DNA of 64,000 nt from a bacterium (GTDB lineage: Bacteria; UBA8248), in contig OZ242260.1 in assembly GCA_965207065.1 (NCBI GenBank), positions 768,001-832,000 of the forward strand, given 5' to 3'. The notes below the pieces were generated by a model that saw only the letters and a list, made by a program, of their open reading frames with translations, did no database searches and was not told the origin of the DNA. Numbering within the stretch: the first letter of the stretch is position 1; each line of letters begins with the position of its first letter. A program made the position numbers and the translations under genes. This document shows positions 27,696 through 53,436 of this stretch, one piece after another.

Positions 27696-28461
27696 ACTTC
27701 ATCGCCTTGCCCAGATAGGCCTCGATTACATTCGGATCCTTGCGAACCACCTCGGGTGTCCCCTCGGCGATCTTCTCGCCGTGATCGAGAACCGTGATAC
27801 GGTCGGAAATACTCATCACCAGGCGGATGACGTGCTCTATCAGCAATATACTCGTCTTCCCGTGAGATCGCAGGTTACCCAGAATTTCGGTGAGCCGCTC
27901 GTACATCACCGGACTTAAACCCGCGGCCGGTTCGTCCAGCAGGATAAGCAGCGGCTCGGAAACCAGCGCGCGCGCGAGTTCCAGCATGCGTTGTTGGCCA
28001 AACGACATCCGGTTTGCCGGCCGGTTGGCGAGATGAGCGAGACGCACGGATTCAAGCGCCTCATACGCCCTGTCCCTGATCTCAGAATCTTCCCGTACGA
28101 CCCGAGGCGGACGAAAGATCCCGCCGATAACACCGCTTCGGCTCTTGCCGTGATAGCCGACCATGACGTTCTCGAGCCCCGTCATTTCCGAAAACACCTG
28201 GAGGTCCTGAAAGGTGCGCGAAATTCCCAGGCTTGCCATGTTGTATGCCCTGGTCGAACTGATCTTCTGGCCGTTAAAGACGACCTCACCCGACTTCTGG
28301 CGCAAAAACCCCGTGATCGCGTTGCAAAGAGTCGTCTTTCCCGATCCGTTCGGACCAATCAGTCCATGTATCTCACCATTGCCAATTTCGAGCGATACGT
28401 TCGATAGAGCCGTAAGCGCCCCATAATTCACGGTCAGATCATCTATCTTAAGAACTGACAT
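27682..28461 (-). CDS. livG: Branched-chain amino acid-type ABC ATPase (LivG-like)
   Basis: GPNGSGKTT, RTFQ, LDEPAAGL, VIEAYLG. Confidence 0.88.
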   Translation of the reverse strand: MSVLKIDDLTVNYGALTALSNVSLEIGNGEIHGLIGPNGSGKTTLCNAITGFLRQKSGEVVFNGQKISSTRAYNMASLGISRTFQDLQVFSEMTGLENVMVGYHGKSRSGVIGGIFRPPRVVREDSEIRDRAYEALESVRLAHLANRPANRMSFGQQRMLELARALVSEPLLILLDEPAAGLSPVMYERLTEILGNLRSHGKTSILLIEHVIRLVMSISDRITVLDHGEKIAEGTPEVVRKDPNVIEAYLGKAMKYVDA

Positions 28462-30406
28462 TGTTTTTCACCGGATTGGCGGCCAGGATTTCGTTCTGCT
28501 CCGAGCTGACGGCCGAGACGTCAGGAGTTCCTTCCTTCCGTCTGAATGCGGACAGCAACCGGTGGACCAGGTCCGCCAGTCCCCCCGGCAAGAACATCAT
28601 GAACGCGACCAGAAGCAGTCCGAAGATCAGGATTCGGTACTCCGCAAGCGTACGCAGCATTTCCGGAACCCCAAGGACGAAGAACGCCCCGATAACGGCT
28701 CCGGCGAAACTGCCAAGACCGCCAATCACGACCATCGTAAGGAATGCGATCGACTGCAGTATAGTGAAGGAATCCGGACTGATATAGGAGAAGAAGTGAG
28801 CATACAGAGAACCTGCAATCCCGGCGCAACCGGCGGCGATGCAGAAGGAGAGCGTCCGGTACCAGGCAACATTCACTCCCATGGAGATTGCAGCCAGTTC
28901 ATTCTCACGGGCCGCGACCAAACCACGGCCATAGCGTGACCTTATCAGGCGCTGCAGCGCTACGAAGACGACCACCAGGACGGCTATCGTCAGGAAATAG
29001 AAAGGTGCGCCTTCCCCGAACACAAAGGAGCCGATGGACGGTTTTCGAATGCCGCTGATGCCCGACATCCCGTTTGTTACGGCCTTCCAGTTGATGAACA
29101 CGAGATGCATAATCTCGCCAAAACCCAGGGTTGCGATGGCGCAGAAATGAGTCGGCAGCCTCAAAATTGGTCCGAACAGCAAGGCGAATACTGCAGCGAC
29201 AATCGCAGCCGCAATCATTGCGGGGAGGAACGGAACGCCTAAGTATACGGTCAAAATCGCCGAAGTGTAGGCGCCAATTCCCAGGAACGCCGCATGACCG
29301 ACGATAATCGCACCGGCGTATCCGATCACGAGCTGCAATCCGAGGGCGCCCGTGGCATAGATCAGGATGAGGGTAACGAGGTAGACCTCATATGTATCGA
29401 GGAGCAACGGCAGCAGGAAGGCGAGGACACCGAGCGCGGCGCTCATGGCGTACCTGAGACGGGCGGCTTGCTTGTCGTTCAACTCGAACAAGTCCGCTAT
29501 GGATTGTCGTCCGTACCGGAACACCAGGCTCCCGCCACGCGGCATACGAGGAATCGCCACGAGCATCAGCACGATGATGGTGACCCCAAAAGCAATCCCG
29601 TTCTTGTAAGCGGATGAAATATAACCCGCGGCGAAAGTCTCCAGCAGGCCGAGAATGGGACCGCCAATCATCGTACCGAGTATGTGAAACTGCCCCAGCG
29701 CCGCACCGGCGAATGATCGAGGTCCCTGCAGCCAAAGGTCCTGCGCGACAAAAAACAATGGTGCGATGAGGACGCCAGCAGCGCCTGCCAACATGGAACT
29801 GATACCGAAAGTCATCGTGACGACGCGATCGAAACTTACACCCAGAATTTCCGCCGTGTATGAGTCATACGCCGACGCCCGCCACGCGATGCCGGGAAGC
29901 GTTCGCTCAAAGAAGTAATGCAGACCGAGCATTGAAAGGATGGCAAGGGCGATAATCCAGATATGCTGAATGCTCATCGGCAGCCCGGCCACGACAAGAT
30001 GGCCTACCTGGCCGACGGATACCGGGTAACGCAGCGGCGCGGCCCCCCATATCAGCTGCGAGACCAGCCGAAGGCATATCCCAATCCCGATTGTTGCGAT
30101 TATCAAATTCAAGAGCGGCGATTGCCGCATTCGAATCGGGCGCAGGGCTACGCGCTCGATCAGCATGCCCAGAATGCCCGTCAGGATGCTCGCTACGATG
30201 AATACGGCCAGATAAGGCAGCGGTGTTACCACCAGGAGGGTATATCCGATGAAGGCGCCTGACATCACGAGTTCGCCCTGTGCGAAGTTGACGAGCTCGG
30301 TGGCCCGCAACATCATCGTGAAGCCAAGAGCGATCAGGGCGTAAACGCAGCCGACCGCCAGCCCGCCGACAACCTGCTGCGTGACGATATGTAAATCTAT
30401 CCCCAT
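28448..30406 (-). CDS. Fused LivH-LivM ABC permease
   Basis: N-half YALIALGF..VNFAQGE (LivH); C-half GHAAFLGIGAY, ATLGFGEI, GGLGS (LivM). Confidence 0.85.
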   Translation of the reverse strand: MGIDLHIVTQQVVGGLAVGCVYALIALGFTMMLRATELVNFAQGELVMSGAFIGYTLLVVTPLPYLAVFIVASILTGILGMLIERVALRPIRMRQSPLLNLIIATIGIGICLRLVSQLIWGAAPLRYPVSVGQVGHLVVAGLPMSIQHIWIIALAILSMLGLHYFFERTLPGIAWRASAYDSYTAEILGVSFDRVVTMTFGISSMLAGAAGVLIAPLFFVAQDLWLQGPRSFAGAALGQFHILGTMIGGPILGLLETFAAGYISSAYKNGIAFGVTIIVLMLVAIPRMPRGGSLVFRYGRQSIADLFELNDKQAARLRYAMSAALGVLAFLLPLLLDTYEVYLVTLILIYATGALGLQLVIGYAGAIIVGHAAFLGIGAYTSAILTVYLGVPFLPAMIAAAIVAAVFALLFGPILRLPTHFCAIATLGFGEIMHLVFINWKAVTNGMSGISGIRKPSIGSFVFGEGAPFYFLTIAVLVVVFVALQRLIRSRYGRGLVAARENELAAISMGVNVAWYRTLSFCIAAGCAGIAGSLYAHFFSYISPDSFTILQSIAFLTMVVIGGLGSFAGAVIGAFFVLGVPEMLRTLAEYRILIFGLLLVAFMMFLPGGLADLVHRLLSAFRRKEGTPDVSAVSSEQNEILAANPVKNNVSS

Positions 30407-31922: not shown

Positions 31923-32355
31923 CTTGAACCTCCTTTGAAAAGAGATTGACTAGCGCGTATGAAACCTTCGTATTTCTATATGATGGCAGGAATGATTTGA
32001 TGGAAATGATTGTCTTTAATGTATCAGATGAATATGCAAGTGTCTACGAGCAAAATCCGGAAGCGGTTTTCTGGATACTCATCCCGGTCCCGCGGGGCAG
32101 CGGGGCGCGACTGTAAACAAGTCCTTCCGTGTCGGGCTTTGGAGAAGGATTATGCAATGTTCCGACTGAGACTCGCCGGAAGGCGCAGGAAATATACGGA
32201 CCGCCAGTCCGTCGGAAAAGTTCGGGCTTACGCCGGTCCCGGGTCGGGATGGGCGGAGAGAAGCAGACCAGCCGTTTAAGATCCCAAACAGCGCGCATTC
32301 ACTTCCCCTCAGGAGAGAGAGGCGGTCGTGATGCTTCAGGTTTTGCGTGTGGTTT

Positions 32356-33858
32356 CTAGATGAACCCGGCGACGGTGCCCTTCGCCGCGTCGAGGAAGCT
32401 GCCCGGGAAGATGCCCAGCAGAAGCGTCGCCACCACCAGCACCACCAGGGCGAAGAAAAGAGAGGGCGCGCTCGACAGGCTCATCACCTCCTGGCCCTCG
32501 CCCCGGTTCTCCATGTACATCACCATGATGATGCGCCCGTAGTAGTACATCGAGACCGCGCTCATCACGAGACCGATGACGGCCAGCCAGTAGTACTCGT
32601 TCTGAACCGCCGCGGCGAAGAGGTAGAGCTTGCCGACGAAGCCGGCCGTCGGCGGGATGCCGCCGAGCGAGAGCAGGAACACCACGAAGGCCATCCCCGC
32701 CCAGGGGTGCGCCTGCCCGATTCCCTTCCAGTCCTCGATGTTGTCGCCCCGGTAGCCGTCGCGGCACACGAGAATCAGCATCCCGAAGGCCCCGAGGTTC
32801 GTGAACAGGTAGGCGAGCAGGTAGAACGCCACCGCGCTGATGCCGATGTCGGTGAACGTCACCTTGCCGTCCACCACGCTCATGGTGGCCACCACGCCCA
32901 TCAGCACGTAGCCCGCGTGCCCGATGCTCGAGTACGCCAGCATGCGCTTCAGGCTTGTCTGGGCGATGGCCGCCACGTTCCCCCACACCAGCGTGAACGC
33001 CGTGAGCGCCCACAACAGGGTGTTCCACCTGTCAGCCATGGCCGGTAACGCCACGAAGAATATCCGCATCAGGGCGGCGACGGTCGCGAACTTGACGGCC
33101 ACGGACATGAAGCCCGTAATCGGCGTCGGCGCGCCCGTGTAGGCGTCGGGCAGCCACATGTGGAACGGCGACAGCGCCAGCTTGAAGCCGAAGCCCGCGA
33201 CCAGGAGAATGAGGCCGAAAATCATCATCGGGTTCTGCGCGATGGCGGCGCCGCCTTCGCCCGAGAACGCCGCCGCGATTCCGCGAATCGAGGTCGTTCC
33301 GGTGAACCCGTACGTCAGTGCCATGCCGTAGAGGAGTACGCCCGAGGCGAAAGCGCCCATGAGGAAATACTTGAGGCCCGCCTCCCGGCTCAAGGGGTCG
33401 TGCCGCATGAACGCCACGAGCACGTAGATGCTGATGCTCATGGTCTCGAGTCCCAGATAGATCGAAATCAAATCGTTGCCAGAGGCCATCACGAGCATGC
33501 CGAACACCGAGAAGAGCAGCATGGCGTACAATTCGCCGAAGTTGATCTTCTCCACCTTGGCGTACTGAAGCAGCAGCAGGATGGAGATGGCCGTACAGAG
33601 CAGCACGCTCACCTTCACGAACACGCTCAGGTTGTCGACCACGTAGAAGCCGCTGAACGTCGTTCTCGCGCCCTCGCCCCATTGCCCGAAAGCGACGAGC
33701 GCGAGAATCACGACCCCCACGAACGCCACGACGCCCACGCGCGACTTGTTCTCGAGCGACACGAACAGGTCGAGAATCAGAACGGCGCATACGAGTATGG
33801 CCAGCCCTATCTCGGGAAGGGCCAGGGACAAGGCGATGTCGGGAATCACCACTTGCAT
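32356..33858 (-). CDS. nuoN: NADH-quinone oxidoreductase subunit N (cluster 2)
   Basis: EAGLKYF, FKLALSPFHMWLPDAY, KRMLAYSSIGH. Confidence 0.95.
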   Translation of the reverse strand: MQVVIPDIALSLALPEIGLAILVCAVLILDLFVSLENKSRVGVVAFVGVVILALVAFGQWGEGARTTFSGFYVVDNLSVFVKVSVLLCTAISILLLLQYAKVEKINFGELYAMLLFSVFGMLVMASGNDLISIYLGLETMSISIYVLVAFMRHDPLSREAGLKYFLMGAFASGVLLYGMALTYGFTGTTSIRGIAAAFSGEGGAAIAQNPMMIFGLILLVAGFGFKLALSPFHMWLPDAYTGAPTPITGFMSVAVKFATVAALMRIFFVALPAMADRWNTLLWALTAFTLVWGNVAAIAQTSLKRMLAYSSIGHAGYVLMGVVATMSVVDGKVTFTDIGISAVAFYLLAYLFTNLGAFGMLILVCRDGYRGDNIEDWKGIGQAHPWAGMAFVVFLLSLGGIPPTAGFVGKLYLFAAAVQNEYYWLAVIGLVMSAVSMYYYGRIIMVMYMENRGEGQEVMSLSSAPSLFFALVVLVVATLLLGIFPGSFLDAAKGTVAGFI

Positions 33859-33892: not shown

Positions 33893-35443
33893 TCATTTTT
33901 TCTCGAGCTTCGTCAGTTTACCGAGCGCGGCCTTTTGCGGGACCTCCGCCGCGTTCACCATCTTCACGACCTTCTTCACGCTCGCCTCCATCCTTCCGAG
34001 GAACGGCTTGGGATACAGGCCGATCCAGAACATCAGGATGACCAGCGGCAGAAGGTAGAGAACCTCGCGCGCGTTGCAGTCGGTGAGCTTCTCGTTCTCC
34101 GGATTATCCAGCGTACCGAAGAATACCCGCTGGAATAGCCAGAGCATGTAGGCCGCCCCCAGGACGATGCCGATGACGGCGAACGCCGCGTACACGTAGC
34201 TCTTCTTGAACGCGCCGATCAGGATCAAGAACTCGCCCACGAACCCGTTGAGCCCCGGCAGACCGATGCTGCTCAGCATCGTGATGGCGAAAAGCACCGT
34301 AAAGACCGGCACGACCTTCGAGAGGCCGCCATAATCGGAGATGAGGCGCGTATGACGCCTCTCGTAAACGACGCCCACCAGAAGGAACAAGGCGCCCGTG
34401 CTGATCCCGTGGTTGATCATCTGTAGCTGCCCGCCGAGCACGCCCTGTTCGTTCAAGGCGAACACGCCCAGCATCACGAAGCCCAGGTGGCTCACGGAGG
34501 AATAGGCCACCAGTTTCTTGATGTCGGTCTGCGCCATGGCCACCAGCGCCCCGTAGATGATGCCGATGATGGAGAGAAGCATCATGAAGGGCACGAAAAC
34601 ATGGCTCGCCTGGGGGAGTAGCGGCAGGGCGAAGCGCACGAAACCGTAGGTTCCCATTTTCAGGAGGATGCCCGCCAGAATCACGCTGCCCGCAGTGGGC
34701 GCTTCCACGTGCGCGTCCGGCAGCCAGGTGTGGAAGGGGAACATGGGGACCTTGATGGCGAATCCGATGAAGAACGCCAGGAATATCCATATCTGGAGCG
34801 AAAGCGGTATCTTCGGCCCCACGCCGTACAACTCGACCAGGTCGAACGTGAGGGTTCCGGTGCCCATTTTCAAGTTGGCGAAGTAGAACGCCAGAATTCC
34901 CAGCAGCATCAACACGCTGCCGAACAGCGTATAGAGGAAGAACTTGATCGCCGCGTAGAGCTTCCTCGGCCCGCCCCACACGCCGATGAGGAAATACATC
35001 GGCACCAGGGTAATCTCGAAGAACACGTAGAAGAGGAAGATATCAAGCGCGATGAAGGTGCCCAGCATGCCGGTCGCCAGCAAAAGGAGGCAGACGTAGT
35101 ATTCTTTCTCGCGCTCCTCGATGGCGGTGAACGAGCATACGACCCCTATGATCATCGTGAGCGTGGTGAGAAGAACGAGCAGCACGCTGATCCCGTCGAT
35201 GCCGACGAAATAGCTCACCCCGATGGTGGGTATCCAGCTCACCTTCTCCACGAACTGAAAGCCGGCTTCGGACTGATCGAACCTGAACCAGAGGGGAAGC
35301 GAAATCAGGAAGTCCAAGACCGCCACCGCCGTGGCGAAACCCTTGATGGCTTTCGTCTGCTCTTTTTTCATGAAGAGCATGATAATCACCGCGCCCGCCG
35401 CGGGCAGGAAGGTGATCATCGTAAGAAGCGGCATGTTACTCAT
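33893..35443 (-). CDS. nuoM: NADH-quinone oxidoreductase subunit M (cluster 2)
   Basis: AAIKFFLYT, FPFHTWLPDAHVEAPT, KKLVAYSSVSH. Confidence 0.95.
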   Translation of the reverse strand: MSNMPLLTMITFLPAAGAVIIMLFMKKEQTKAIKGFATAVAVLDFLISLPLWFRFDQSEAGFQFVEKVSWIPTIGVSYFVGIDGISVLLVLLTTLTMIIGVVCSFTAIEEREKEYYVCLLLLATGMLGTFIALDIFLFYVFFEITLVPMYFLIGVWGGPRKLYAAIKFFLYTLFGSVLMLLGILAFYFANLKMGTGTLTFDLVELYGVGPKIPLSLQIWIFLAFFIGFAIKVPMFPFHTWLPDAHVEAPTAGSVILAGILLKMGTYGFVRFALPLLPQASHVFVPFMMLLSIIGIIYGALVAMAQTDIKKLVAYSSVSHLGFVMLGVFALNEQGVLGGQLQMINHGISTGALFLLVGVVYERRHTRLISDYGGLSKVVPVFTVLFAITMLSSIGLPGLNGFVGEFLILIGAFKKSYVYAAFAVIGIVLGAAYMLWLFQRVFFGTLDNPENEKLTDCNAREVLYLLPLVILMFWIGLYPKPFLGRMEASVKKVVKMVNAAEVPQKAALGKLTKLEKK

Positions 35444-35466: not shown

Positions 35467-37488
35467 TCAGCGGAAAAGGTACGCGCTCAGCATCACGAAG
35501 ATGCCCAACAGCATCACGAAAAGATAATTCTGAACCATGCCGGATTGCAGGTATTTGAATACCTGGGAGAAGAAGCGGATGAAGCTCGCCGTGCCGTTCA
35601 CCGCGCCGTCCACCGTCCGCAGGTCGAAAATGCCCGAGAAGCGGCTCGACACCATAGTGATGAGCGAACTGCCGTTCACCGCCCCGTCCACCACCTTCGC
35701 ATCGAAGGTCCACAGGCCGCGCATGAGCTTGTAGGTCGGCTCGACGATGCAGGCCTGGTAAATCTCGTCAACATAGTATTTGCCGAGGAGCAGGTAATAG
35801 ATGCCCGGTATGCTCCTGTACAGGCGCCTCGGCGCTCCGGTGTCCTTGACGTACATGTACCACGCCAGGGCGATGCCGCCCACGGCGACTGCGATGGCCA
35901 GGATGATCAGAAGCACCACCGCCGGGCCGCTGTGCCCGCCGCCGGCCGCGGCGTTCATCAGGTGCACGCCCTGGTCCATGGCGTGGCCGCCCGCCGGCAT
36001 CTTCGCCAGCGAGGGCGCGAGGAAGCGGTGTATCCAGCCGCCCTCGGGCGGGAAGCCGGGAATCACGCCGCCGATGACGCTCAGGACCGCCAGGATGATG
36101 AGCGGAACCGTCATCGTGGGGGGTGATTCGTGAATATGCTCGCGGGCGTGATGGTCGACGCGCATCTCGCCGTGAAACGTCATGAAGATGAGCCGGAACA
36201 TGTAGAAGGCCGTCATGAAGGCCGCGACGGTGCCCATGATCCAGACCGTGTAGTGTCCCGTGAAGAAGGCGTTCGCCAGAATCTCGTCCTTGCTCCAGAA
36301 GCCCGCCAGAGGCGGAACGCCCGCGATGGCGATCGCGCCGATCAGGAACGTCCAGTACGTGATGGGCATCTTGTCCTTCAAGCCGCCCATGTAGCGCATG
36401 TCCTGCTGCTGTTCCTCGGGCGCATGGTGAAGCGCGTGGATCACGCTGCCGCTGCCCAGAAAGAGCAGGCCCTTGAAGAAGGCGTGCGTCATCAGGTGGA
36501 AGATGGCGGCCGTGAAGGCGCCCACGCCCAGCGCCATGAACATGAAGCCGAGCTGGCTTACCGTGCTGTAGGCGAGCACGCGTTTGATGTCGTTCTGCAC
36601 CAGGCCGATGCTCGCGGCGAAAAGCCCCGTGAGCGCGCCGACGACGGCGATGACGCTCATCGCGTCCGGCCCCATGACGTAGATGGGGCTCGTGCGCGCG
36701 ACCATGTAGACGCCCGCCGTCACCATGGTGGCGGCGTGGATGAGGGCGCTGACGGGGGTCGGGCCTTCCATGGCGTCGGGCAGCCAGACGTAGAGCGGAA
36801 TCTGCGCGCTCTTGCCGACGGCGCCGACGAACAGCAGAAGGCCGACGGCCGACGCCATCGCCGCGCTCATCTCGGGAGCCGCCTGGAAGACTTCCGTGTA
36901 GGTGAGGCTGCCGGTCAGCGTCCAGATGAGGAACATGCCGAGCAGGAAGCCCGCGTCGCCGATTCGGTTGACGATGAACGCCTTCTTGCCGGCGTCTGAT
37001 GCGGATTGCTTCTCGTACCAGAAGCCGATGAGCAGATAGCTGCAAAGGCCCACGCCCTCCCAGCCGACGAACATGACGAGATAGTTGTCCCCCAGCACCA
37101 GCAGGAACATCGAGAGCATGAACAGGTTGAGATAGGTGAAAAAGCGCGGATAGCCCGGGTCGCCGTGCATGTAGCCCACGGCGTAGACGTGCACCAGAAA
37201 GCCCACGCCCGACACCACGAGCAGCATGATGGTGCTCAGCGGGTCGATGAGGAAGCTCATGGAAACGCTCAGGCTTCCCGCTTCCACCCACGTCCAGAGC
37301 GGTATGGTGTGGCTGCCGCCCGCGCCGAATATCATCTGCCCGGCGATGCCCAGCACAACGAGAAACGACAGCCCCGCCATGCCGGAGGCGATGGGGCCCG
37401 CATTCTCGCCCACGTGCTTTCCGAACAATCCGTTGATCAGGACCCCGATCACCGGAAAAACGGGAATGAGCCAAGCCAGTTCGATCAT
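35467..37488 (-). CDS. nuoL: NADH-quinone oxidoreductase subunit L (cluster 2), lateral helix extended by 26 aa
   Basis: GKSAQIPLYVWLPDAMEGPTPVSALIHAATMV, THAFFK; FD...VDGAVNG duplicated at 26-aa spacing. Confidence 0.95.
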   Translation of the reverse strand: MIELAWLIPVFPVIGVLINGLFGKHVGENAGPIASGMAGLSFLVVLGIAGQMIFGAGGSHTIPLWTWVEAGSLSVSMSFLIDPLSTIMLLVVSGVGFLVHVYAVGYMHGDPGYPRFFTYLNLFMLSMFLLVLGDNYLVMFVGWEGVGLCSYLLIGFWYEKQSASDAGKKAFIVNRIGDAGFLLGMFLIWTLTGSLTYTEVFQAAPEMSAAMASAVGLLLFVGAVGKSAQIPLYVWLPDAMEGPTPVSALIHAATMVTAGVYMVARTSPIYVMGPDAMSVIAVVGALTGLFAASIGLVQNDIKRVLAYSTVSQLGFMFMALGVGAFTAAIFHLMTHAFFKGLLFLGSGSVIHALHHAPEEQQQDMRYMGGLKDKMPITYWTFLIGAIAIAGVPPLAGFWSKDEILANAFFTGHYTVWIMGTVAAFMTAFYMFRLIFMTFHGEMRVDHHAREHIHESPPTMTVPLIILAVLSVIGGVIPGFPPEGGWIHRFLAPSLAKMPAGGHAMDQGVHLMNAAAGGGHSGPAVVLLIILAIAVAVGGIALAWYMYVKDTGAPRRLYRSIPGIYYLLLGKYYVDEIYQACIVEPTYKLMRGLWTFDAKVVDGAVNGSSLITMVSSRFSGIFDLRTVDGAVNGTASFIRFFSQVFKYLQSGMVQNYLFVMLLGIFVMLSAYLFR

Positions 37489-37495
37489 GATTCCC

Positions 37496-37798
37496 CTACC
37501 ACTTCAAAAGGTTGATTTCGTCCACGTTGACCATCGTGCGGTCGCGGTTGAGCGCAATGAGTATCGCAAGTCCCACGGCCGCCTCGCACGCCGCCACGGT
37601 GATGACGAAGATGGCGAACACCTGGCCCGTCATATCCGCCAGGTGGCGCGAGAAGCCCACGAAGGTCACGTTCACGGCGTTGAGCATCAACTCGATGGAC
37701 AACAGGATGATGATGGCGTTGCGGCGCATCAGAACGCCCATCGCGCCGATGAGGAACAGGACGGCGCCCAGGACGAGAAAATGAGTCATCGGTATCAT
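37496..37798 (-). CDS. nuoK: NADH-quinone oxidoreductase subunit K (cluster 2)
   Basis: RRN...[16 protein letters not shown]. Confidence 0.95.
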
Positions 37799-37816
37799 TG
37801 CGGGTTCTCTCTCCCT

Positions 37817-38326
37817 CTATCGCTCTATCGTGCGCTTCGCGAGGACGATGGCGCCGATCATCGAGGCCAGCAGGAGGACGGAGGCCACCTCGAAGGGAAA
37901 CAGGAATTTCGTGTACAAGACCGCGCCCAGGGCTTCGACGTTGCCCGGCGTGGCTCCCAGCGACCACTCCCACTGCTTGGGCGCCCCGAACTCCACCTCC
38001 CCCAGCACGGCCCATATTTCCAGCCCCAGAAGCACGGCCGCCACGAGCACCACGACGCCCTGGCGGTGCCACTGCCGCATCCGCACGGCCACCTCCACGT
38101 TCATCAGCATGATCGAGAACAGGTAGAGCACCATGATGCCGCCCGCGTAGAGCAATATCTGCACCGCCGCCAGAAACTCCGCTCCCGCCAGCACGAAGAC
38201 GCCCGCCAGGAAGAAGAACGTCAGCACCAGCAGCAGGGCCGCGTGAATCACGTTCGCGCGCGTGATCATCAGCAGGGAGGTCAGGATCATCCCGCCCGCG
38301 AACATATAGAAGAAATAGATTTCCAC
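37817..38326 (-). CDS. nuoJ: NADH-quinone oxidoreductase subunit J (cluster 2)
   Basis: AEFLAAVQILLYAGG, PFEVASVLLL. Confidence 0.93.
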   Translation of the reverse strand: MEIYFFYMFAGGMILTSLLMITRANVIHAALLLVLTFFFLAGVFVLAGAEFLAAVQILLYAGGIMVLYLFSIMLMNVEVAVRMRQWHRQGVVVLVAAVLLGLEIWAVLGEVEFGAPKQWEWSLGATPGNVEALGAVLYTKFLFPFEVASVLLLASMIGAIVLAKRTIER

Positions 38327-38345
38327 CCTGCGTCTCTCCCGCTGG

Positions 38346-39317
38346 TTACAAGAACAGGTACTTCAGGAATCCGGTCAGGAAAATGTTGAGCATCACGAGC
38401 GGGAACATGAACTTCCATCCCACGCGCATCAGCTGATCGTAACGGTAGCGCGGCAGCGTCGCCCGCAGCCATATGAACACGAACATCAAGGCGCCCAGTT
38501 TGAGGCAGTACCAGACGAAGCCGGGGAGCGGAATGAAATCCGGCCCATCCCATCCGCCGAAAAACAGCACGATGCCAATCGTCGATATGACCATCATGCT
38601 GGCGTACTCCGCCAGGAAGAAGAACGCGAACTTCATCCCGCTGTATTCGGTGTGAAAGCCGGCCACGAGTTCGGTTTCCGCCTCGGGCAGGTCGAAGGGC
38701 ACCCGGTTCGTCTCCGCAAGCGCCGCGATAAAGAAGACGATAAAGGCCAACGGCTGATAGAACACGAACCATACGTCGCGCTGCGCGTGTACGATCTCCT
38801 GCAGGTTCAGGGAACCGGCGAGCATCAGCGGCCCGATGACGGAGAAGCCCAGGAATATCTCGTAGCTCAGCATCTGCGCCGCGCTCCTGAGCGCGCCCAG
38901 AAGCGAGTATTTGCTGTTCGAGGCCCAGCCCGCCATCACCACGCCGAACACGCCGAGTGAGCTGATCGCCAGAACGAAAAACAGCCCGATGTTGATTTGC
39001 GTGATATAGAACGTCGCGCTGAAGGGCAGCACCGCATAGACGACCAGTGCGGGCACCAGCACCATCACGGGGGCCAGGACGAAAACAACGCGGTCCGCCT
39101 TGTCGGGGATGATGTCTTCTTTGAAAAACAGCTTGAGCCCGTCCGCTATCGGCTGAAGGAGCCCGTGCCAGCCCACGCGCATCGGCCCCAGGCGCAACTG
39201 TGCGTGGGCGATCACTTTTCGCTCGACGTAGATCATATACGCCACCACGAGTTGCACCACGTTGACCACGATGAATATCTTTATCGCGGCGACCGCGACT
39301 TCTAGCGCCATGTCCAA
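38346..39317 (-). CDS. nuoH: NADH-quinone oxidoreductase subunit H (cluster 2)
   Basis: [31 protein letters not shown]. Confidence 0.95.
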
Positions 39318-39329
39318 CGAAACGACTCC

Positions 39330-40472
39330 TTACCGATCACACTCGCCCAACACGATGTCGATGCTTCCGATGATGGCCACCACGTCCGCGACCAACTGCC
39401 CGATGCACAGCTTCTTGAGCCCCCCCAGGTTGATGAACGAGGGCGGGCGGATGCGGACGCGATAGGGCGTCGTCGTCCCATCGCTCACGATGTAGAAGCC
39501 GAACTCGCCCTTGGGGTTTTCGATGCTGTGGTATATCTCGCCCTCCGGGGGCTTGATGGTTCGCGGCGTCTTGCAGGTCACCGGCCCGCCGGGAAGCTGG
39601 TCCAGGCACTGCTGGATGATGCGGGTGCTCTGGCGCAACTCCTCGATGCGCACCAGATAGCGGTCGTATATGTCGCCGTTCTCGCCGACGGGAACGACGA
39701 AATCGAGATAGGGATACGCCGCGTATGGCTTGGCGCGCCTTAAGTCCCAACGCACGCCGCTGCCCCGGATGATCGGGCCCGTCAATCCTAAGTCCATCGC
39801 ATCCTCGGCGGAGATGATGCCCACGTCGCGCGTCCTCTGCAGCCAGATGCGGTTGTTCGTGAGCAGCGTCTCGTAATCATCGATCCGGCTCGGGAAAATA
39901 TCGATGAACTCCTGCGTGAGTTGCAGGAACTTGTCCGGCACGTCCTCGTGCAGACCGCCCAGGCGGAAGGCGTTCACCGTCAGTCGGCCGCCGAACGCCG
40001 TCTCGAAGAGATCGAGCACCATCTCGCGCTCTCGGAAGCACCACAGGAACACCGTCATCGCCCCGATGTCGAGAGCGTGCGTGGCGAGCCAGAGCAGGTG
40101 GCTGGCGATGCGGGAGAGCTCCCCCACCATCGAGCGGATGTACTGCGCCCGCATGGGGATCTCCCAGTCGAAGAATTTCTCCACCGCCGTGACCCACGCG
40201 AGATTGTTCGAGGGCGCCGCGATGTAGTCGAGGCGGTCCGTATAGGGGATGAACATCGTGTAGGTGATGTTCTCGCCGATCTTCTCCGTGCCGCGGTGCA
40301 GGTAGCCGATGTCGCAGTCGAGGTCGTTCACCGTCTCGCCGTCGAGTTTCAGGATCACCCGGAGCACCCCGTGCGTGCTCGGGTGCTGGGGACCCATGTT
40401 GATGACGAGTTCTTCGGTCCCGTGCAGGGTGCTCTGCTGCTCGATACGAGACGTGTTCGCTACGCCGACCAT
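39330..40472 (-). CDS. nuoD: NADH-quinone oxidoreductase subunit D (cluster 2, short form)
   Basis: NMGPQHPSTHGVLR, GYLHRGTEK, DIVLGECDR. Confidence 0.95.
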   Translation of the reverse strand: MVGVANTSRIEQQSTLHGTEELVINMGPQHPSTHGVLRVILKLDGETVNDLDCDIGYLHRGTEKIGENITYTMFIPYTDRLDYIAAPSNNLAWVTAVEKFFDWEIPMRAQYIRSMVGELSRIASHLLWLATHALDIGAMTVFLWCFREREMVLDLFETAFGGRLTVNAFRLGGLHEDVPDKFLQLTQEFIDIFPSRIDDYETLLTNNRIWLQRTRDVGIISAEDAMDLGLTGPIIRGSGVRWDLRRAKPYAAYPYLDFVVPVGENGDIYDRYLVRIEELRQSTRIIQQCLDQLPGGPVTCKTPRTIKPPEGEIYHSIENPKGEFGFYIVSDGTTTPYRVRIRPPSFINLGGLKKLCIGQLVADVVAIIGSIDIVLGECDR

Positions 40473-40501
40473 TCCCTCATTTCCTCAAAAAGTGCGTTGC
40501 T

Positions 40502-41092
40502 CTAATCGCCGATTTCCTTGCGCTTCGGCTTGGTGTAAATCCGCTCTCCCCGACCCTCGAGCGGATAGTCCTTCCGCATCGGATGGCTGCCCCAGTTGTC
40601 GGGCAGAAGTATCCGCCTGAGATCCGGATGACCCTCGAATTCGATGCCGAACAAATCGTAGATTTCACGCTCCATCCAGTCCGCGCTGCTCCATACGCCC
40701 GAAACCGTAGGCATGGCCTGGCCTTCCTTGATCCGCACTTTCAGGCGAAGCCTGCGGTTATGTTCGATGCTGTAGAGCTGATACAGCACCTCGAAGGGAT
40801 TTTCGGCCTCCGGGTAGTGCACCGCCGTCAAGTCGGTGAGGAGTTTGAAGAGCGTATCGCCGTGGTCGCGCAGATGCGTGGACACGGCGACGATGGAGTC
40901 GAGTCCCACGACGAACGTCGCCTCGTCCTCATCGTCCTGATAGGCGCTCTGCTCCAGAACTGCGCCCGGAAACGCCGATTCCACCACTTCCTTCAAATCC
41001 TCGCCGGGCGGAGTCTTCACGGCTTCGGCGGGCTCATCGGCATCCGGAGCGCCGTTCGTCTGTTCGCTGTTTTCCTCTACCTCGTCCGGCAT
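40502..41092 (-). CDS. nuoC: NADH-quinone oxidoreductase subunit C (cluster 2)
   Basis: EREIYDLFGIEFEGHPDLRRI, HPMRKDYP. Confidence 0.95.
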   Translation of the reverse strand: MPDEVEENSEQTNGAPDADEPAEAVKTPPGEDLKEVVESAFPGAVLEQSAYQDDEDEATFVVGLDSIVAVSTHLRDHGDTLFKLLTDLTAVHYPEAENPFEVLYQLYSIEHNRRLRLKVRIKEGQAMPTVSGVWSSADWMEREIYDLFGIEFEGHPDLRRILLPDNWGSHPMRKDYPLEGRGERIYTKPKRKEIGD

Positions 41093-41118
41093 CTTCTTCC
41101 CTTGTGCGCCGCAGGTTG

Positions 41119-41595
41119 TTACCGGCGGATGTATTTTTCCTGTTCAATTTTTTTCTGAAGCTGCATGACGCCCCACATCAAGGATTCGGGCCTGGGCGGG
41201 CAACCCGGAATGTAGACGTCCACCGGGATGATTTCATCCACTCCCTGCATCACCGCATAGTTCGCGTACGGGCCGCCGCAGGTGGCGCAGTTGCCCATCG
41301 CGATCACCCAGCGCGGCTCGGGCATCTGGTCGTAGACCTTGCGAATCGCATCACCCATCTTGTGGGTGACGGTGCCCGCCACGATGATCACGTCGGACTG
41401 GCGCGGCGTGGCGCGGAAGATCACGCCGAAACGGTCGAAATCGTAGCGCGCAGCGCCCGAGGCCATCATCTCGATGGCGCAGCACGCCAGGCCGAAGGTC
41501 ATCGGCCAAAGCGCGCTCTTCCTCGCCCAGGCGACCAGGCTGTCGACTTTCGACGTGACGAAATTATCGCTGAACTTGCCCTCGACTATGCCCAC
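41119..41595 (-). CDS. nuoB: NADH-quinone oxidoreductase subunit B (cluster 2)
   Basis: [28 protein letters not shown] start at 41595 overlapping the nuoA stop. Confidence 0.93.
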
Positions 41596-41987
41596 TCCAA
41601 CGCTCCTTTTCGCCAAGCGTAGAAATAACCCACCAACAGGATGGCGATGAACAGCATCATCTCGATGAATCCGAACAGCCCGAGTGCGTCGTAGCGCACC
41701 GCCCAGGGGAAGAGGAACAAGGCCTCCACGTCGAAGAGCAGGAACAGTATGCCCAGCAGGTAGAACCGGATGGAGAAGCGCTCGTGCGCCTCCATCAGCG
41801 GGGGCATGCCGCACTCATAGGGGGAGTTCTTCTCGGAGTCGGGGTTGTTCGGGCGGACCAGCATCGCGAAGATCAGAATACTCGCCGCGAGGGCGGCCGC
41901 CATGAGCGTGATCAGGAAGATGGGGACGTAGGGATTGATGACCTGATAATCCCTGAAAAACGCGCCTACAACCTCCATGGCATCCAT
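41586..41987 (-). CDS. nuoA: NADH-quinone oxidoreductase subunit A (cluster 2)
   Basis: [23 protein letters not shown]. Confidence 0.93.
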
Positions 41988-42157
41988 GCGTGGTCCCCCA
42001 CAAAATACAGCATACCCCAAGAGTCATGAGAATGCGCCGCCTTCATCGTTGCCGCATGGCGGTCATTCCCCTCGAAAACCCCTGGATCAAAAGCATGATA
42101 TCGAACGAACCGCCATGATTTATATCATGGCGGCAATCGAAAAACCAACCCCTGAGG

Positions 42158-43636
42158 TCAATTAAAAAAGACCGTGGATCGATGGGCGAAATCCAGCACC
42201 GAGGAGGGGAAAATCCCCAATTGCAGGGTGGTCGCTACGGCGAGCACGAGCGCCGCGACCGCGTAGGACCAGCCCGGATGCGGCGCGCGCTTCACCACGC
42301 CGCCTTGCGGTTCGCGCATGTACATCACCACGACGAGCCTCAGGTAATAATACACGGCCACCACGCTGTTGAGCACCGCTATCACGGTCAGCCAGACGTA
42401 GCCGCCGTTCAGCGCTGCGCTGAACACGTGGAATTTCGCCACGAAACCCCCGGTGGGCGGAAGGCCGGAGAGCGAGACCATGAACACGGCCATCGCCGCC
42501 GCGAGACCTGGCCGGAAAGAGGCCAGACCCGCGAGGTTATCCAGCTTCGTGCCGCCGTCCTCGCGCATGTTCGAGATGAGGGTGAGCACGCAGAAAGCGC
42601 CCATGTTCATGAAAACGTAGACGAGCATGTAGTACAGGAACCCGCTCGTGGCCAACTCGGCACTCGAGCGCGACGCCACGAGCGCGACCATGAGATAGCC
42701 GGCGTGGGCGATGCTCGAATAGGCGAGCATCCGCTTCACGCAGGACTGCCAGATGGCGACGAGGTTCGCCAGGCTCATCGTGAGCACGGCCATCACCCAA
42801 AAAACCGTATCGAAGCTCCCGCCGGCGTCGCCCGCGGAGAGAAAAACCCGGAAAAACGCGGCGAAAGCCGCCGCCTTCGGACCCACGGACATGAACGCCG
42901 TCACCGCGGTGGGCGCGCCCTCGTATACGTCCGGCGTCCACATGTAGAAAGGCGCCGCGGCCACCTTGAAGCCCAGCCCAACCACCATGAAGCCCAGGCC
43001 CATCAGGAAGGCTGCCCCTCGCGAGGCGGGATTCTCGTGAAGCCGCGTGGCGATTTCTATCAGGTCGACCGACCCCGTCGCGCCGTAGACGAGCGCCATG
43101 CCGTAGAGCAGGAAACCCGAGGCGAACGAACCGAGCAGAAAGTATTTGAGCGACGCCTCGTTGCCCTCGGGACGCGCGCGCAGATAACCCGCCAGGACGT
43201 AGAGCGACAGGGAGAACACTTCCAGGCCCACGAAGATCATCAGCAGGTTCCGCGTCGCCGCCATGAGCATCATGCCGGAGGTGGCGAAGAGGATGAGGCC
43301 GAAATACTCGCCCGCCGGCGTATCGTCCAGCTCCCGCTGGGCCGCGGCGATGAGCACCGAGAAAATGCTCGCGAACAGGATGACGACGTAGAGAAACTGC
43401 GTGAACCCGTCGAAGAGGTACATGCCGCCGAACGACGCGGCCAGGCCCGGCAGCGCGCGCGCGCCGAGCGTCACCCCCAGGGCGGCGGCCAGCGTCATCA
43501 GCGTGATGATGATGATGACGGAGCGCTCCCCTTTTGCGAGAAAAACGTCCCACATCAGAACCAGCACCGCCCCGAATACCGGCAGGATCACCGGCAGCAG
43601 GTATCCCCAATGGATGGTGGGATGAACGATTTCCAA
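42158..43636 (-). CDS. nuoN: NADH-quinone oxidoreductase subunit N (cluster 1)
   Basis: EASLKYFLLG, WTPDVYEGAP, KRMLAYSSIAH. Confidence 0.95.
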   Translation of the reverse strand: MEIVHPTIHWGYLLPVILPVFGAVLVLMWDVFLAKGERSVIIIITLMTLAAALGVTLGARALPGLAASFGGMYLFDGFTQFLYVVILFASIFSVLIAAAQRELDDTPAGEYFGLILFATSGMMLMAATRNLLMIFVGLEVFSLSLYVLAGYLRARPEGNEASLKYFLLGSFASGFLLYGMALVYGATGSVDLIEIATRLHENPASRGAAFLMGLGFMVVGLGFKVAAAPFYMWTPDVYEGAPTAVTAFMSVGPKAAAFAAFFRVFLSAGDAGGSFDTVFWVMAVLTMSLANLVAIWQSCVKRMLAYSSIAHAGYLMVALVASRSSAELATSGFLYYMLVYVFMNMGAFCVLTLISNMREDGGTKLDNLAGLASFRPGLAAAMAVFMVSLSGLPPTGGFVAKFHVFSAALNGGYVWLTVIAVLNSVVAVYYYLRLVVVMYMREPQGGVVKRAPHPGWSYAVAALVLAVATTLQLGIFPSSVLDFAHRSTVFFN

Positions 43637-43638
43637 AG

Positions 43639-45195
43639 CTATTTCACCTCGACTCTTTGCACATAAGCGAGCGCGCTCTTTTGCAATTTCCGCTCAGGCG
43701 CCTTCTCCACGCGCAGCACCCGGCGGTTCACCTGCGTGAGCCAGGCCTTGGCCGACGGCTCGATGCGGTTGAACAACGGTTTGGGGTAAAGCCCGATCCA
43801 GAACATCAGCGCCACCATGGGCAGCATGACGAGCCACTCGCGCCTGTTCATGTCGGCGAGCCCCAGGTTCGCCCGCACGCTTACCTCGCCGAACAGCACG
43901 CGCTGGAGCATCCAGAGCATGTAGACCGCCGAGAGAACCACGCCGGTGGCCGCGATTACGGCGAACCAGGCGTTGCGCTCGAACGCGCCCAGCAGAATCG
44001 TGAACTCGCCCACGAACCCGTTCAGCCCCGGGAGGCCGATGCTGCTCAGCGCCGTGATGATGAAAAACGTCGAGAACACGGGCATCACCCGAAGGAGCCC
44101 TCCGAATTCATCGATTTGCCGCGTGTGCCTCCTCGAATAGATGAAGCCCACGATCAGGAAGAGCGCCCCGCTGCTGATGCCGTGGTTCACCATCTGGATA
44201 ACGCTCCCCGAGGCGCCCAGGAGGTTGAAGGAGAAAAGCCCCAGCATCACGAAGCCCAGATGGCTCACCGAGGAGTAGGCCACGAGCTTTTTCACGTCGG
44301 TCTGCACCATGGCCATGAGCGCCCCGTAGATGATCCCCACCAGCGCCAGGCATATGATGAGGAACGCGAACTCGCGCGCCGCCGTCGGGAACAGCGGCAT
44401 CGCCAGCCTCATGAAGCCGTACGTGCCCATTTTCAGGAGGACGCCGGCGAGGATGACGCTTCCCGCCGTGGGCGCTTCCACGTGGGCGTCGGGCAGCCAG
44501 GTGTGAAACGGGAAAATCGGCACCTTGATGGCGAAGGAGATGGCGAACGCGGCGAACAGCCACGGCTGGAGGGCGGCGTCCACCGGTTCTCTGATATGCG
44601 CCAGGATGTCGAACGTGCCGACCCCGCTCGTGAAATACAGCCAGATGATCGCCACGAGCATCAGCACGCTTCCGGCCATGGTGTACAGGAAGAACTTGAC
44701 GGCCGCGTAAATCCGGCGTCCCCCGCCCCAGACCCCGATGATGAGGTACATCGGAATCAGCATCCCTTCCCAGAAGACGTAGAACAGGAAGAAATCGAGC
44801 GCGAAGAACACACCGAGCATCCCCGTCTCCAGGAACAGCAGGGACATGTAGTAGAGCCTGGTCTTTTTCCGCACGTCCTCGAAGGAGAAAAGAATCGCGA
44901 CGGGCGTCAGGATGGTGGTCAGCATCACGAGCAGCAGGCTGATGCCGTCAACGCCCACCTTGTAGGAAATCCCGAATCTCGGGATCCACGCCGCTTCTTC
45001 GACGAACTGCATATCCGCGAAACCGGGCCGGAAGCCCATGTACATCACGGCCGAAAGAGCGAACGTGACCAGCGACACCGCCAGCGCGAACGCGCGTATG
45101 CCTCCGCTCCCCTTGCGCTCACCCTCTCGCGCGAACAGGAGCAGCAGACCGCCCAGCATGGGCAGGAACAGTATCGACGTGATTATTCCAGGCAC
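43639..45195 (-). CDS. nuoM: NADH-quinone oxidoreductase subunit M (cluster 1)
   Basis: FPFHTWLPDAHVEAPT, KKLVAYSSVSH. Confidence 0.95.
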   Translation of the reverse strand: MPGIITSILFLPMLGGLLLLFAREGERKGSGGIRAFALAVSLVTFALSAVMYMGFRPGFADMQFVEEAAWIPRFGISYKVGVDGISLLLVMLTTILTPVAILFSFEDVRKKTRLYYMSLLFLETGMLGVFFALDFFLFYVFWEGMLIPMYLIIGVWGGGRRIYAAVKFFLYTMAGSVLMLVAIIWLYFTSGVGTFDILAHIREPVDAALQPWLFAAFAISFAIKVPIFPFHTWLPDAHVEAPTAGSVILAGVLLKMGTYGFMRLAMPLFPTAAREFAFLIICLALVGIIYGALMAMVQTDVKKLVAYSSVSHLGFVMLGLFSFNLLGASGSVIQMVNHGISSGALFLIVGFIYSRRHTRQIDEFGGLLRVMPVFSTFFIITALSSIGLPGLNGFVGEFTILLGAFERNAWFAVIAATGVVLSAVYMLWMLQRVLFGEVSVRANLGLADMNRREWLVMLPMVALMFWIGLYPKPLFNRIEPSAKAWLTQVNRRVLRVEKAPERKLQKSALAYVQRVEVK

Positions 45196-45230
45196 TCGCC
45201 CCTAACGCTCCTCAAAGAATCGAAAAATCA

Positions 45231-47135: not shown

Positions 47136-47147
47136 GATTCCTTAGCT

Positions 47148-47450
47148 CTATAGCTTCAGTAGATTGATCTCGTCCAGGTCGGTGGATTCACGGTTTCTGT
47201 ATATCAGCACCACGATGGCCAGGCCGATAGCGGCTTCCGCCGCGGCCACCGCCATCACGAAAAACACGATCATCTGGCCCGCCATCGAGTCCAGGAAGTG
47301 ACCATAGGCCACGAACGCCAGATTCGCCCCGTTCATCATCAACTCGATGCACAAGATGACGACGATGGCGTTTCTGCGCACCACGACGCCCACGACTCCT
47401 AAAGAGAAGAGAACCGCGCTCAGAATCAGGTAATGCTCAAGCGGCGCCAC
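47148..47450 (-). CDS. nuoK: NADH-quinone oxidoreductase subunit K (cluster 1)
   Basis: [19 protein letters not shown]. Confidence 0.95.
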
Positions 47451-47462
47451 GTCCCACTCCTC

Positions 47463-47981
47463 CTAGCGGCTTCGCCTGCTCGCCAGCACCACGGCGCCGA
47501 CGATGCCCACGAACAACAATACGCCCATGGCCTGGAACGGCAGGACGTAATCCGTCAACAACAGGTTTCCGATAATCTGCGTGTTGCCCAGCTCACTCAC
47601 GCGCTCCGGGGGAAAACTTCCCTTTTTGCCCGTCATGAGGGAGGTGGAGAGGAATATCTTGAGCAGCACGCTGAATACGGCGAGTCCCGCGATGGCGCCC
47701 AGCATCTTCTGTCCGGGCAGGCGCAGCTCTTTTTGCTCCTCCCGGCCCAGGTTGATCAGCATCACCACGAACAGGAATAGCATCATGATCGCGCTGGCGT
47801 AGATGATCACCTGAACGATGGCGACGAACTGCGCGTGAAGCGAGAGATACAGCCCGGCAAGGCCCAGGAAGGTCAGGATCAGGGCGAGCACGCTGTAGAG
47901 CGGGCTGGGAAACGCGACGACGGCTATCGCGCCCACCGTCGTCACCACCGCCAGGAAATAAAAGAACAGGGAACTGGCCAC
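47463..47981 (-). CDS. nuoJ: NADH-quinone oxidoreductase subunit J (cluster 1)
   Basis: AQFVAIVQVIIYASAI, YVLPFQ; lies between nuoI and nuoK. Confidence 0.93.
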   Translation of the reverse strand: MASSLFFYFLAVVTTVGAIAVVAFPSPLYSVLALILTFLGLAGLYLSLHAQFVAIVQVIIYASAIMMLFLFVVMLINLGREEQKELRLPGQKMLGAIAGLAVFSVLLKIFLSTSLMTGKKGSFPPERVSELGNTQIIGNLLLTDYVLPFQAMGVLLFVGIVGAVVLASRRSR

Positions 47982-48026
47982 TACCGCCCTTCCTCCAGCG
48001 GGCGGGCGCCCGCTTCAAATCGAACC

Positions 48027-48506
48027 CTAGACATACGTGAGCAGGTTTTTCTCGTCATAGCGGGCATGAAGCTCCGGATAATCCTCGGTCCGCTCCACGA
48101 TCAAATCGCCCTTCTCGTAGAGGAACTTGCCCCGGTCGTCCTGACAGAATTCATACTCGTTGCCCAGCACGACCGCGCCGACCGGGCAGGCTTCTTCGCA
48201 ATATCCGCAAAAGATGCAGCGAAGCTCGTTGATCTCGTAAATGCTGGCGTAGCGCTCGCCCTTCGAAGTCGGCGCCTCGGGGTCGTTCTCCTCAGATTCC
48301 ACATATATGCAATCTACCGGACACGCTGCCGAGCAGAGCTTGCACCCCACGCAGCGCTCCAGGCCGTCCTCCCAGCGCAGCAGCTTGTGGAGGCCGCGGT
48401 AGCCCACGGGCATCTCCTCCTTGACGTCGGGGTACTGCACGGTCACGCGGTTTTTGAAGGAATGCTTGAGCGTCAGCCACAATCCCCTGCAAATCTCGCC
48501 TAACAT
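48027..48506 (-). CDS. nuoI: NADH-quinone oxidoreductase subunit I
   Basis: CVGCKLCSAACP and CIFCGYCEEACP, two [4Fe-4S] motifs. Confidence 0.96.
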   Translation of the reverse strand: MLGEICRGLWLTLKHSFKNRVTVQYPDVKEEMPVGYRGLHKLLRWEDGLERCVGCKLCSAACPVDCIYVESEENDPEAPTSKGERYASIYEINELRCIFCGYCEEACPVGAVVLGNEYEFCQDDRGKFLYEKGDLIVERTEDYPELHARYDEKNLLTYV

Positions 48507-48533
48507 GAATCCTCCCCCCTTTCGATCGGCCCG

Positions 48534-52112: not shown

Positions 52113-52129
52113 CTATCGCCTCTCCCCCA

Positions 52130-53434: not shown

Positions 53435-53436
53435 CT

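Follow-up and report, generated by a model that had tools for sequence, protein, structure and literature searches.

How many protons complex I pumps per electron pair is normally inferred from the number of antiporter-like genes. We analyzed a 64,000-nucleotide (nt) stretch of DNA (hereafter, the window) from a bacterium of the phylum UBA8248: positions 768,001 to 832,000 of the forward strand of contig OZ242260.1, assembly GCA_965207065.1. On its minus strand, the window has two sets of complex I genes in a head-to-tail arrangement. In the second set (cluster 2), NuoL (673 amino acids (aa); 35467-37488, minus strand) has a duplicated segment in its lateral helix (HL, or clamp), and the operon has just one nuoM. 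What does a clamp of four-pump length do where the operon encodes three pumps? What is established is an ancient, conserved, and length-fixed duplication of the NuoM-contact segment, in a complex that lacks NuoE, F, and G, and without a gene for a fourth pump. As a tentative account, which we rate as somewhat short of probable, the sequences suggest a putative L-M-M-N arrangement, in which the clamp would span four positions and the single NuoM would fill two of them.

In cluster-2 NuoL, FDAKVVDGAVNG at residues 595-606 (window 35671-35706) recurs as FDLRTVDGAVNG at residues 621-632 (window 35593-35628), at an offset of exactly 26 residues (78 nt) and in frame. The full units of the repeat, as delimited by the translation, the DNA repeat, and the alignment, are residues 595-620 (FDAKVVDGAVNGSSLITMVSSRFSGI; 35629-35706, minus strand) and residues 621-646 (FDLRTVDGAVNGTASFIRFFSQVFKY; 35551-35628, minus strand). 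A preliminary description of this DNA had reported the repeat, its offset, and its position; the translation and a search for DNA repeats agree with it on all three. The two copies of the direct DNA repeat (35592-35614 and 35670-35692, spacing 78) agree at 22 of 23 nt. Across the full units of 26 residues, identity drops to 10 of 26 residues and 41 of 78 nt, which makes this an old duplication with just its core preserved. The near-identical DNA of the core reflects conserved residues. The best 12-residue self-match of cluster-2 NuoL has 9 of 12 residues identical, which was reached by none of 200 residue shuffles (the maximum was 8, in 4 shuffles).

The duplicated core has the pattern D-x-x-V-V-D-G-x-V-N-G. 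Cluster-1 NuoL has a single copy (FEDGLVDAAVNG), again as described before. The flanks of the repeat are canonical in length: from KYYVDEIY to motif 1 is 25 residues in cluster-2 NuoL and 26 in cluster-1 NuoL, and motif 2 through LQSG is 18 residues in both. Because the distances between transmembrane helix 15 (TM15) and motif 1 and between motif 2 and TM16 are canonical, we can describe cluster-2 NuoL as a canonical NuoL with one extra motif-and-spacer unit. Apart from that unit, it resembles canonical NuoL, Nqo12, and ND5 (E. coli 3RKO, T. thermophilus 4HE8, and P. denitrificans 8QBY), with the same fold, the KYYVDEIY start, the D-x-x-V-x-D-G-x-V-N-G motif, the LQ[TS]G end, and TM16.

We compared the repeat to solved structures. 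With phmmer, cluster-2 NuoL matches solved NuoL chains with E = 1e-155 to 1e-131, and both copies of the motif (query residues 599-609 and 625-635) align to one stretch of NuoL from Paracoccus denitrificans (8QBY chain L, residues 651-661). We also made a profile from 68 short-helix C-termini; it has collinear matches to solved NuoL, ND5, and NdhF chains, among them residues 531-611 of E. coli 3RKO chain L (E = 3e-5). All of these profile matches run collinearly and lack the extra unit, so we detected no long-HL NuoL in the solved structures that were matched. In the profile alignment, D563-P564-L565-N566 of E. coli NuoL falls on x-x-V-D of the V-D-G-x-V-N-G core. P564 is the kink in the amphipathic helix at the contact with NuoM (Belevich et al. 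2011, PMC3274701), and L565 and N566 are the residues closest to NuoM in 3RKO (PMC3274701). Since the repeat core aligns with the kink of the E. coli helix (PMC3274701), the duplicated unit is probably the NuoM-contact segment; this mapping comes from a weak profile match and may be shifted by a few residues.

From an alignment of 104 sequences, AlphaFold2 modeled cluster-2 NuoL with a mean predicted local distance difference test score (pLDDT) of 86.6 and with helices at residues 522-548, 570-645, and 652-672. The second of these is the predicted HL, which is continuous over 76 residues (35554-35781, minus strand), and the third is the predicted C-terminal anchor helix, TM16 (35473-35535, minus strand). 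The preliminary description had considered that the insertion might loop out, and in the model of the monomer it is predicted to continue one long helix instead. Along HL, pLDDT drops from about 85 to 65. For NuoL from an operon with two nuoM genes (locus L105), the predicted helix is 596-673 (78 residues), with TM16 next. The core of the cluster-2 NuoL model aligns very well to solved NuoL and ND5 chains (Z = 52-54); the alignments that have root-mean-square deviations of 1.5-2.2 Å end at model residues 585-597, and TM16 of the model is covered by none of the 50 matches listed. The duplication gives HL two NuoM-contact motifs and, if the added unit is α-helical, lengthens it by about 39 Å. 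Cluster-2 NuoL also has a Gly/His/Ala-rich loop before TM15 (residues 496-520; window 35929-36003, minus strand), with about 13 extra residues, that is not in cluster-1 NuoL; pLDDT is below 50 for residues 500-518.

Is the length of the helix conserved? We measured HL from the V-D-E motif to Q-x-G in 121 NuoL open reading frames (ORFs). HL was 50-53 residues in 69 of these, 76-77 residues in 36, and between 53 and 76 in none; the other 16 could not be measured, so the 105 measured helices form two classes. In cluster-2 NuoL, HL has 76 residues. This is the length in three operons from Acidobacteriota that have adjacent nuoM genes (nuoM-nuoM, in the order A B C D I H (J) K L M M N) and whose NuoLs have the same 26-residue repeat in the same place. 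(The sample of Acidobacteriota comprised 101 genomes, 93 of them with a NuoM match, and the tally includes two unpublished genomes, which enter no other result.) Alignment to canonical NuoLs and to these true two-nuoM (2M) NuoLs puts the insertion inside the lateral helix, with the same position and length as in 2M, which upholds the assignment in the preliminary description.

The combination of a single nuoM and a long HL is common in Pyrinomonadaceae, Bryobacterales, and other Acidobacteriota. Across 35 long-HL NuoLs with one nuoM, from two phyla, the D, V-D-G, and V-N of both motif copies are at least 90% conserved. In UBA8248, we examined 18 genomes in detail (13 genomes, 4 close relatives, and that of the window). 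All 18 have an operon of the cluster-2 type in which the tail of NuoL, counted from KYYVDEIY to the C-terminus, is long (104-105 residues). The short NuoL of cluster 1 (79-84 residues over the same interval) is present in all but two of the 13 genomes. The two exceptions, G010 and G011 (each 2.1 Mb and 95% complete, in 2 and 6 contigs), have only the operon of the cluster-2 type.

Does another gene encode the missing pump? Within the operon, the preliminary description counted one nuoM, and this is correct: nuoM (33893-35443) is followed by nuoN and then by unrelated ABC transporter genes. The window's genome is complete, in a single 4.48-Mb contig, and a six-frame search with the NuoM model found two matches above the cut-off, which are the two operon genes, one in each operon. 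This rules out the orphan nuoM that had been considered in the preliminary description. The matches below the cut-off were the genes for L and N and, at 2.67 Mb, an Mrp-like pair. This pair (G000:C1:2672864-2677402, minus strand), with MrpD-like and MrpA-like frames of 607 and 808 aa, is also found in the close relatives G001 and G002; it comprises the only other antiporter-like genes of the window's genome and is absent from G010 and G011. Among 51 genomes of the phylum, 45 have exactly two nuoM, four have one, one has none, and one has four (on two contigs and with identical scores, so this is probably an assembly duplicate). The tandem layout of a 14-gene and a 10-gene operon is kept in nearly all of the 51 genomes: where two nuoM share a contig, they are about 9.7-10 kb apart, and no adjacent pair of nuoM was listed.

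G010 and G011 each have exactly three antiporter-like genes in the whole genome, which are L, M, and N. As these genomes hold no other antiporter-like gene, only the products of L, M, and N remain for any fourth position. Similarly, G097, from the Acidobacteriota, has one nuoM, a long-HL NuoL, and no antiporter-like gene beyond L, M, and N. In the complete chromosomes G004 and G005, the number of nuoM equals the number of operons. G003, a Bryobacteraceae chromosome, has an additional unlinked nuoM (locus L120, G003:C1:5510610-5512061) with no nuoL or nuoN nearby; this may be a two-nuoM complex that is encoded in trans.

These inventories bear on two alternatives. In one, which was raised in the preliminary description, the second M of the cluster-2 complex is the NuoM of cluster 1, borrowed from the neighboring operon. 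In its favor, the two operons of the window's genome are separated by 137 nt, lie on one strand, and are possibly co-transcribed, and their NuoM proteins are 55% identical. However, G010 and G011 have the long-HL operon without cluster 1 and with three antiporter-like genes only, G097 also combines one nuoM with a long-HL NuoL, and the NuoM partners of long-HL NuoLs form a clade apart from the cluster-1 NuoMs (see below). These points argue against borrowing as a general mechanism, and we consider it very improbable. In the other alternative, the fourth position is filled by a second copy of NuoN or NuoL, or by an unrelated membrane protein that is encoded elsewhere. The geometry of the clamp favors a fourth position and says nothing about its occupant, but there is no conserved extra gene in or after the operon, and the motif that was duplicated is the one that contacts NuoM. 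We give this alternative only a small chance. As for a gene after nuoN, the 84-aa ORF there (32044-32298) had no tblastn match in 18 related loci, and we rejected it as a conserved gene.

The trees separate the NuoMs that work with long helices from the others. We built NuoM trees with FastTree from 111 rows and with IQ-TREE, under a mixture model, from 52 rows; the first NuoL tree was built with FastTree only. The NuoM partners of long-HL NuoLs, from both UBA8248 and Acidobacteriota, lie on one side of a branch with a support of 100 from FastTree and of 99 from the Shimodaira-Hasegawa-like approximate likelihood ratio test (SH-aLRT), apart from the cluster-1 NuoMs and from both paralogues of the true 2M operons. 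Those two paralogues are on long separate branches and are strongly diverged. The unlinked nuoM of G003 is sister to the operon NuoMs of Bryobacterales, including the nuoM of its own long-HL operon (SH-aLRT 100), so a second, specialized M can arise from the state with a long HL and one nuoM.

For NuoL, the cluster-2 proteins from UBA8248 group in one clade (SH-aLRT 99), far from the true 2M NuoLs, which group with a long NuoL from Actinomycetota. (That long-HL NuoL, at locus L042 19692-21689 of a metagenome-assembled genome, is sister to the true 2M NuoLs and belongs to a second nuo operon, of which the locus reaches only as far as nuoL.) The preliminary description had likened cluster 2 to 2M complexes and called for phylogenies. 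In these, the partner NuoMs of long-HL NuoLs form their own clade, and neither NuoL nor NuoM of cluster 2 is near the 2M proteins in the sample. The backbone of the NuoL tree is poorly supported, and parsimony implies at least 4-5 changes of the long-HL state, 2 of which are forced by well-supported branches. A single clade of all 15 long-HL one-nuoM NuoLs in the tree (a group that was named after the first tree had been seen) was rejected by the approximately unbiased test (p-AU 0.017), so the state of HL changed more than once, and we rejected a single origin of the long HL. The short-HL NuoLs of L111 and L112 (from G137 and G149) nest beside the long-HL NuoL of L067 (SH-aLRT 96), and their NuoMs are among the partners of short-HL NuoLs. 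Their placement could be due to loss of the duplication, a mosaic operon, or an error in the tree.

Repeated changes of state might be expected if the long helix were neutral: a tolerated, functionless bulge that is left over from a two-nuoM state or is a step toward one. The long HL of Ca. Manganitrophaceae (PMC9040806) would also fit. We think that such a relic is improbable. The length is fixed at 76-77 residues, both motifs are conserved over two phyla, and the long HL was retained by all 18 genomes of the phylum that we examined in detail. Also, none of the 38 rows in the clade of partner NuoMs is a 2M member, and the predicted continuous helix argues against a loop.

The lengthened helix goes along with the loss of the NADH module. 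A profile search of the window found no nuoE, F, G, or I in the cluster-2 operon, and because nuoH and nuoJ abut, there is no space for nuoI between them. A second nuoI above the cut-off is elsewhere in the window's genome (G000:C1:1211234-1211605, minus strand; 122 bits, cut-off 113). It lies in a 182-aa ORF with two [4Fe-4S] (locus L103 7109-7657), and it shares 55% identity with the nuoI of G010 and 40% with the cluster-1 nuoI. G010 and G011 each have one nuoI, which is far from the operon and is the orthologue of the second nuoI of the window's genome; neither genome had a match for NuoF. We infer that cluster 2 and the unlinked nuoI encode an 11-subunit complex I without the NADH module.

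In both the window's genome and G010, this unlinked nuoI is directly downstream of trxB. We considered the flavoprotein encoded by trxB as an alternative module for electron input and rejected it, as it is an ordinary thioredoxin reductase (TIGR01292, 358.7 bits, cut-off 343.45). The window's genome also has a second NuoF-like gene (G000:C1:3382350-3383534, minus strand; 456 bits, below the NuoF cut-off), which is adjoined by a 923-aa frame with an Fe-S motif. It is kept in G009 and G044 and absent from G010 and G011, and it may be a diaphorase of the hydrogenase or formate dehydrogenase type or else an alternative input module.

To extend the comparison, we counted NuoG at loci where nuoD and nuoH or nuoJ were visible upstream of nuoL. 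NuoG was upstream at 20 of 24 short-HL loci, at 0 of 29 long-HL loci with one nuoM, and at 0 of 3 long-HL loci with two; the loci are related, so these counts are not independent.

How would an enzyme of this kind work? In the proposed arrangement, the longer clamp would span four antiporter-like positions, L-M-M-N, and the one nuoM gene would supply the protein for the two in the middle, held by the two NuoM-contact motifs. We suggest a single product for both positions because no further antiporter-like gene exists. We suggest four positions because the change in HL is identical to that in true 2M operons, the flanks are canonical, both motifs are conserved, no membrane subunit is enlarged, G003 has a paralogue, and the long HL is linked to loss of the NADH module. 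The cluster-2 complex would then be the one-gene (homomeric) form of the known two-nuoM complexes. It would move a fifth proton per two electrons, which would suit a low-potential partner such as ferredoxin, in either direction. An electron partner with a lower potential could pay for the fifth proton; this follows from an energetic argument that PMC6606698 attributes to Chadwick et al. and Lucker et al. If the arrangement holds for cluster 2, then the whole NuoEFG-less subfamily, across UBA8248 and many Acidobacteriota, would be a putative four-pump enzyme with one nuoM product at two adjacent positions, which is a possibility that we likewise rate as somewhat short of probable.

Several points weigh against using NuoM twice. 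No member of the complex I / Mrp family is known to place the same polypeptide at two positions. In true 2M operons, the two nuoM paralogues that have been retained differ strongly, which suggests that the two positions have different needs. The mapping to E. coli has a 4-residue gap near the weak match. The AlphaFold2 models are of monomers, and confidence is moderate in the duplicated part (pLDDT 65-72). A long HL is also found in complexes of Ca. Manganitrophaceae that are described as canonical in gene content (PMC9040806), so a long HL is not tied to a visible extra gene. And a three-pump model with TM16 anchored one unit further is geometrically self-consistent. A complex prediction with two copies of cluster-2 NuoM (residues 1-498) returned no answer (score 0.00) and counts neither for nor against.

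The three-pump enzyme is the main rival; a relic, another occupant, and borrowing from cluster 1 are less likely. In this rival, the longer clamp sits in a shifted register, with motif 1 on NuoM and motif 2 on the homologous site of NuoN, and no extra proton is pumped. TM16 would be anchored about one subunit width further along, beside NuoK/J/A near NuoH, and would staple the membrane arm of the EFG-less enzyme. In its favor, G010 and G011 hold genes for L, M, and N only, and the state has stayed stable, with no duplicated gene, throughout the phylum and in many Acidobacteriota. As a paralogue of NuoM, NuoN could bind a copy of the M-contact motif, and E. coli often tolerates small insertions in HL (PMC3274701). 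But TM16 would need a new docking site, and NuoJ, K, A, and H of cluster 2 are unchanged in size. It would also be a coincidence that the extension equals that of true four-pump operons, and no solved complex I shows such an anchor, as none of the 50 chains listed covers TM16 of the model. On balance, we consider the three-pump enzyme to be rather unlikely.

If NuoM is used twice, the complex I / Mrp family would have its first example of a polypeptide that serves at two positions, and for many environmental bacteria the H+/e- ratios deduced from their genomes would be incorrect. The subfamily would be a living one-gene precursor of the two-nuoM complexes, which could then have arisen in one step, by duplication of the helix first and of the gene later, and gene content alone would not tell how many pumps there are. 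If NuoM is not used twice, then the lateral helix has a mode of binding that is seen in no solved structure. Either way, a clamp of four-pump length is conserved where the whole genome holds three antiporter-like genes.

A 2M complex I with an insertion of about 26 residues in the lateral helix of NuoL was reportedly described by Chadwick et al. in 2018 (ISME J 12:2668). Two-nuoM complexes with lengthened NuoL are described in PMC6606698, PMC7117926, PMC9040806, PMC11636273, and PMC12342949. Cluster 2 shares with 2M complex I the insertion of about 26 residues, which matches the three nuoM-nuoM operons that we compared in place and length. It also shares the lack of an NADH module, which is missing from cluster 2, from those three operons, and from the Nitrospira clade-3 type (PMC6606698). 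Unlike 2M complexes, cluster 2 has no second nuoM in the operon, the genome, or the phylum, and the trees do not place its NuoL and NuoM near the 2M proteins that were sampled.

In the literature covered, which did not include the original 2M paper, the sole mention that we found of a long-HL NuoL without a second nuoM was in PMC9040806. There, Yu et al. (2022) reported that in Complex_I_1 and Complex_I_2 of Ca. Manganitrophaceae, NuoL has the HL insertion and there is no extra pump gene, which they described as curious and left open. In this respect, cluster 2 is alike. As far as can be compared by description, those complexes have canonical gene content and order, whereas cluster 2 lacks nuoE, F, G, and I. 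Also, the genomes of Ca. Manganitrophaceae hold an extra-pump complex that might lend a subunit (PMC9040806), while some relatives of cluster 2 have three antiporter-like genes in all. The green complex I of rhizobia and Complex_I_3 of Ca. Manganitrophaceae have HL insertions that span more than three pump positions, and they have additional MrpD-like genes (PMC9040806), in contrast to cluster 2, which has none. Other 11-subunit enzymes without NuoEFG, such as those of Desulfitobacterium hafniense (PMC11238625) and cyanobacterial NDH-1, similarly have no NADH-oxidizing module and possibly have ferredoxin as the electron partner; cluster 2 differs in its unlinked nuoI downstream of trxB and in its lengthened lateral helix. 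What we add is that the long helix is a phylum-wide trait, in an operon without nuoE, F, G, and I and with a type of NuoM that is common to many Acidobacteriota, and that there are genomes in which, by the gene inventory, either NuoM must be doubled or the clamp must have a new role.

The remaining genes of both clusters, all on the minus strand, were assigned by profile matches. In cluster 2, nuoA-B-C-D-H-J-K (37496-42020) precede nuoL: nuoA is at 41586-42020, nuoB within 41119-41814, nuoC at 40502-41092, nuoD at 39330-40472, nuoH at 38346-39317, nuoJ at 37817-38326, and nuoK at 37496-37798. NuoL matches NF005141 (757.3 bits, cut-off 556) and TIGR01974 (754.8 bits, cut-off 407.5). We rejected the idea that it is MrpA: the best MrpA model scored 329 bits, versus a cut-off of 937, and the match stops at residue 480, without the MrpB-like C-terminal domain of MrpA. 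The operon's sole nuoM (516 aa) matches TIGR01972 (643 bits, cut-off 264), and the last gene, nuoN (32356-33858, 500 aa), scores 438 bits with TIGR01770 versus 151 bits with the NuoM model.

Cluster 1 is a complete 14-gene nuoA-N that includes nuoE, F, G, and I (42158-56871), with a short-HL nuoL (45231-47135, 634 aa) and a nuoM of 518 aa (43639-45195). It ends upstream of cluster 2, and the two clusters (32356-56871) are possibly one 24-gene transcription unit. None of the other membrane subunits of cluster 2 is enlarged relative to cluster 1: the sizes, in aa, are 516 versus 518 for M, 500 versus 492 for N, 169 versus 172 for J, 100 versus 100 for K, and 323 versus 326 for H. Among the ribosome-binding sites of L, M, and N in cluster 2, the best match is that of nuoM (GGAGG with a 5-nt spacer before ATG), which is too weak to indicate higher synthesis. 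In RNA-labeled sequencing runs from sponge and other metagenomes, 12-20% of the sampled words were present, and we draw no claim about expression from this. The genes 3' of nuoN are of the Liv type, and a 652-aa ORF among the window's genes (28448-30406, minus strand) is a fused permease of a branched-chain amino acid ABC transporter, with LivH at residues 8-284 and LivM at residues 310-625.

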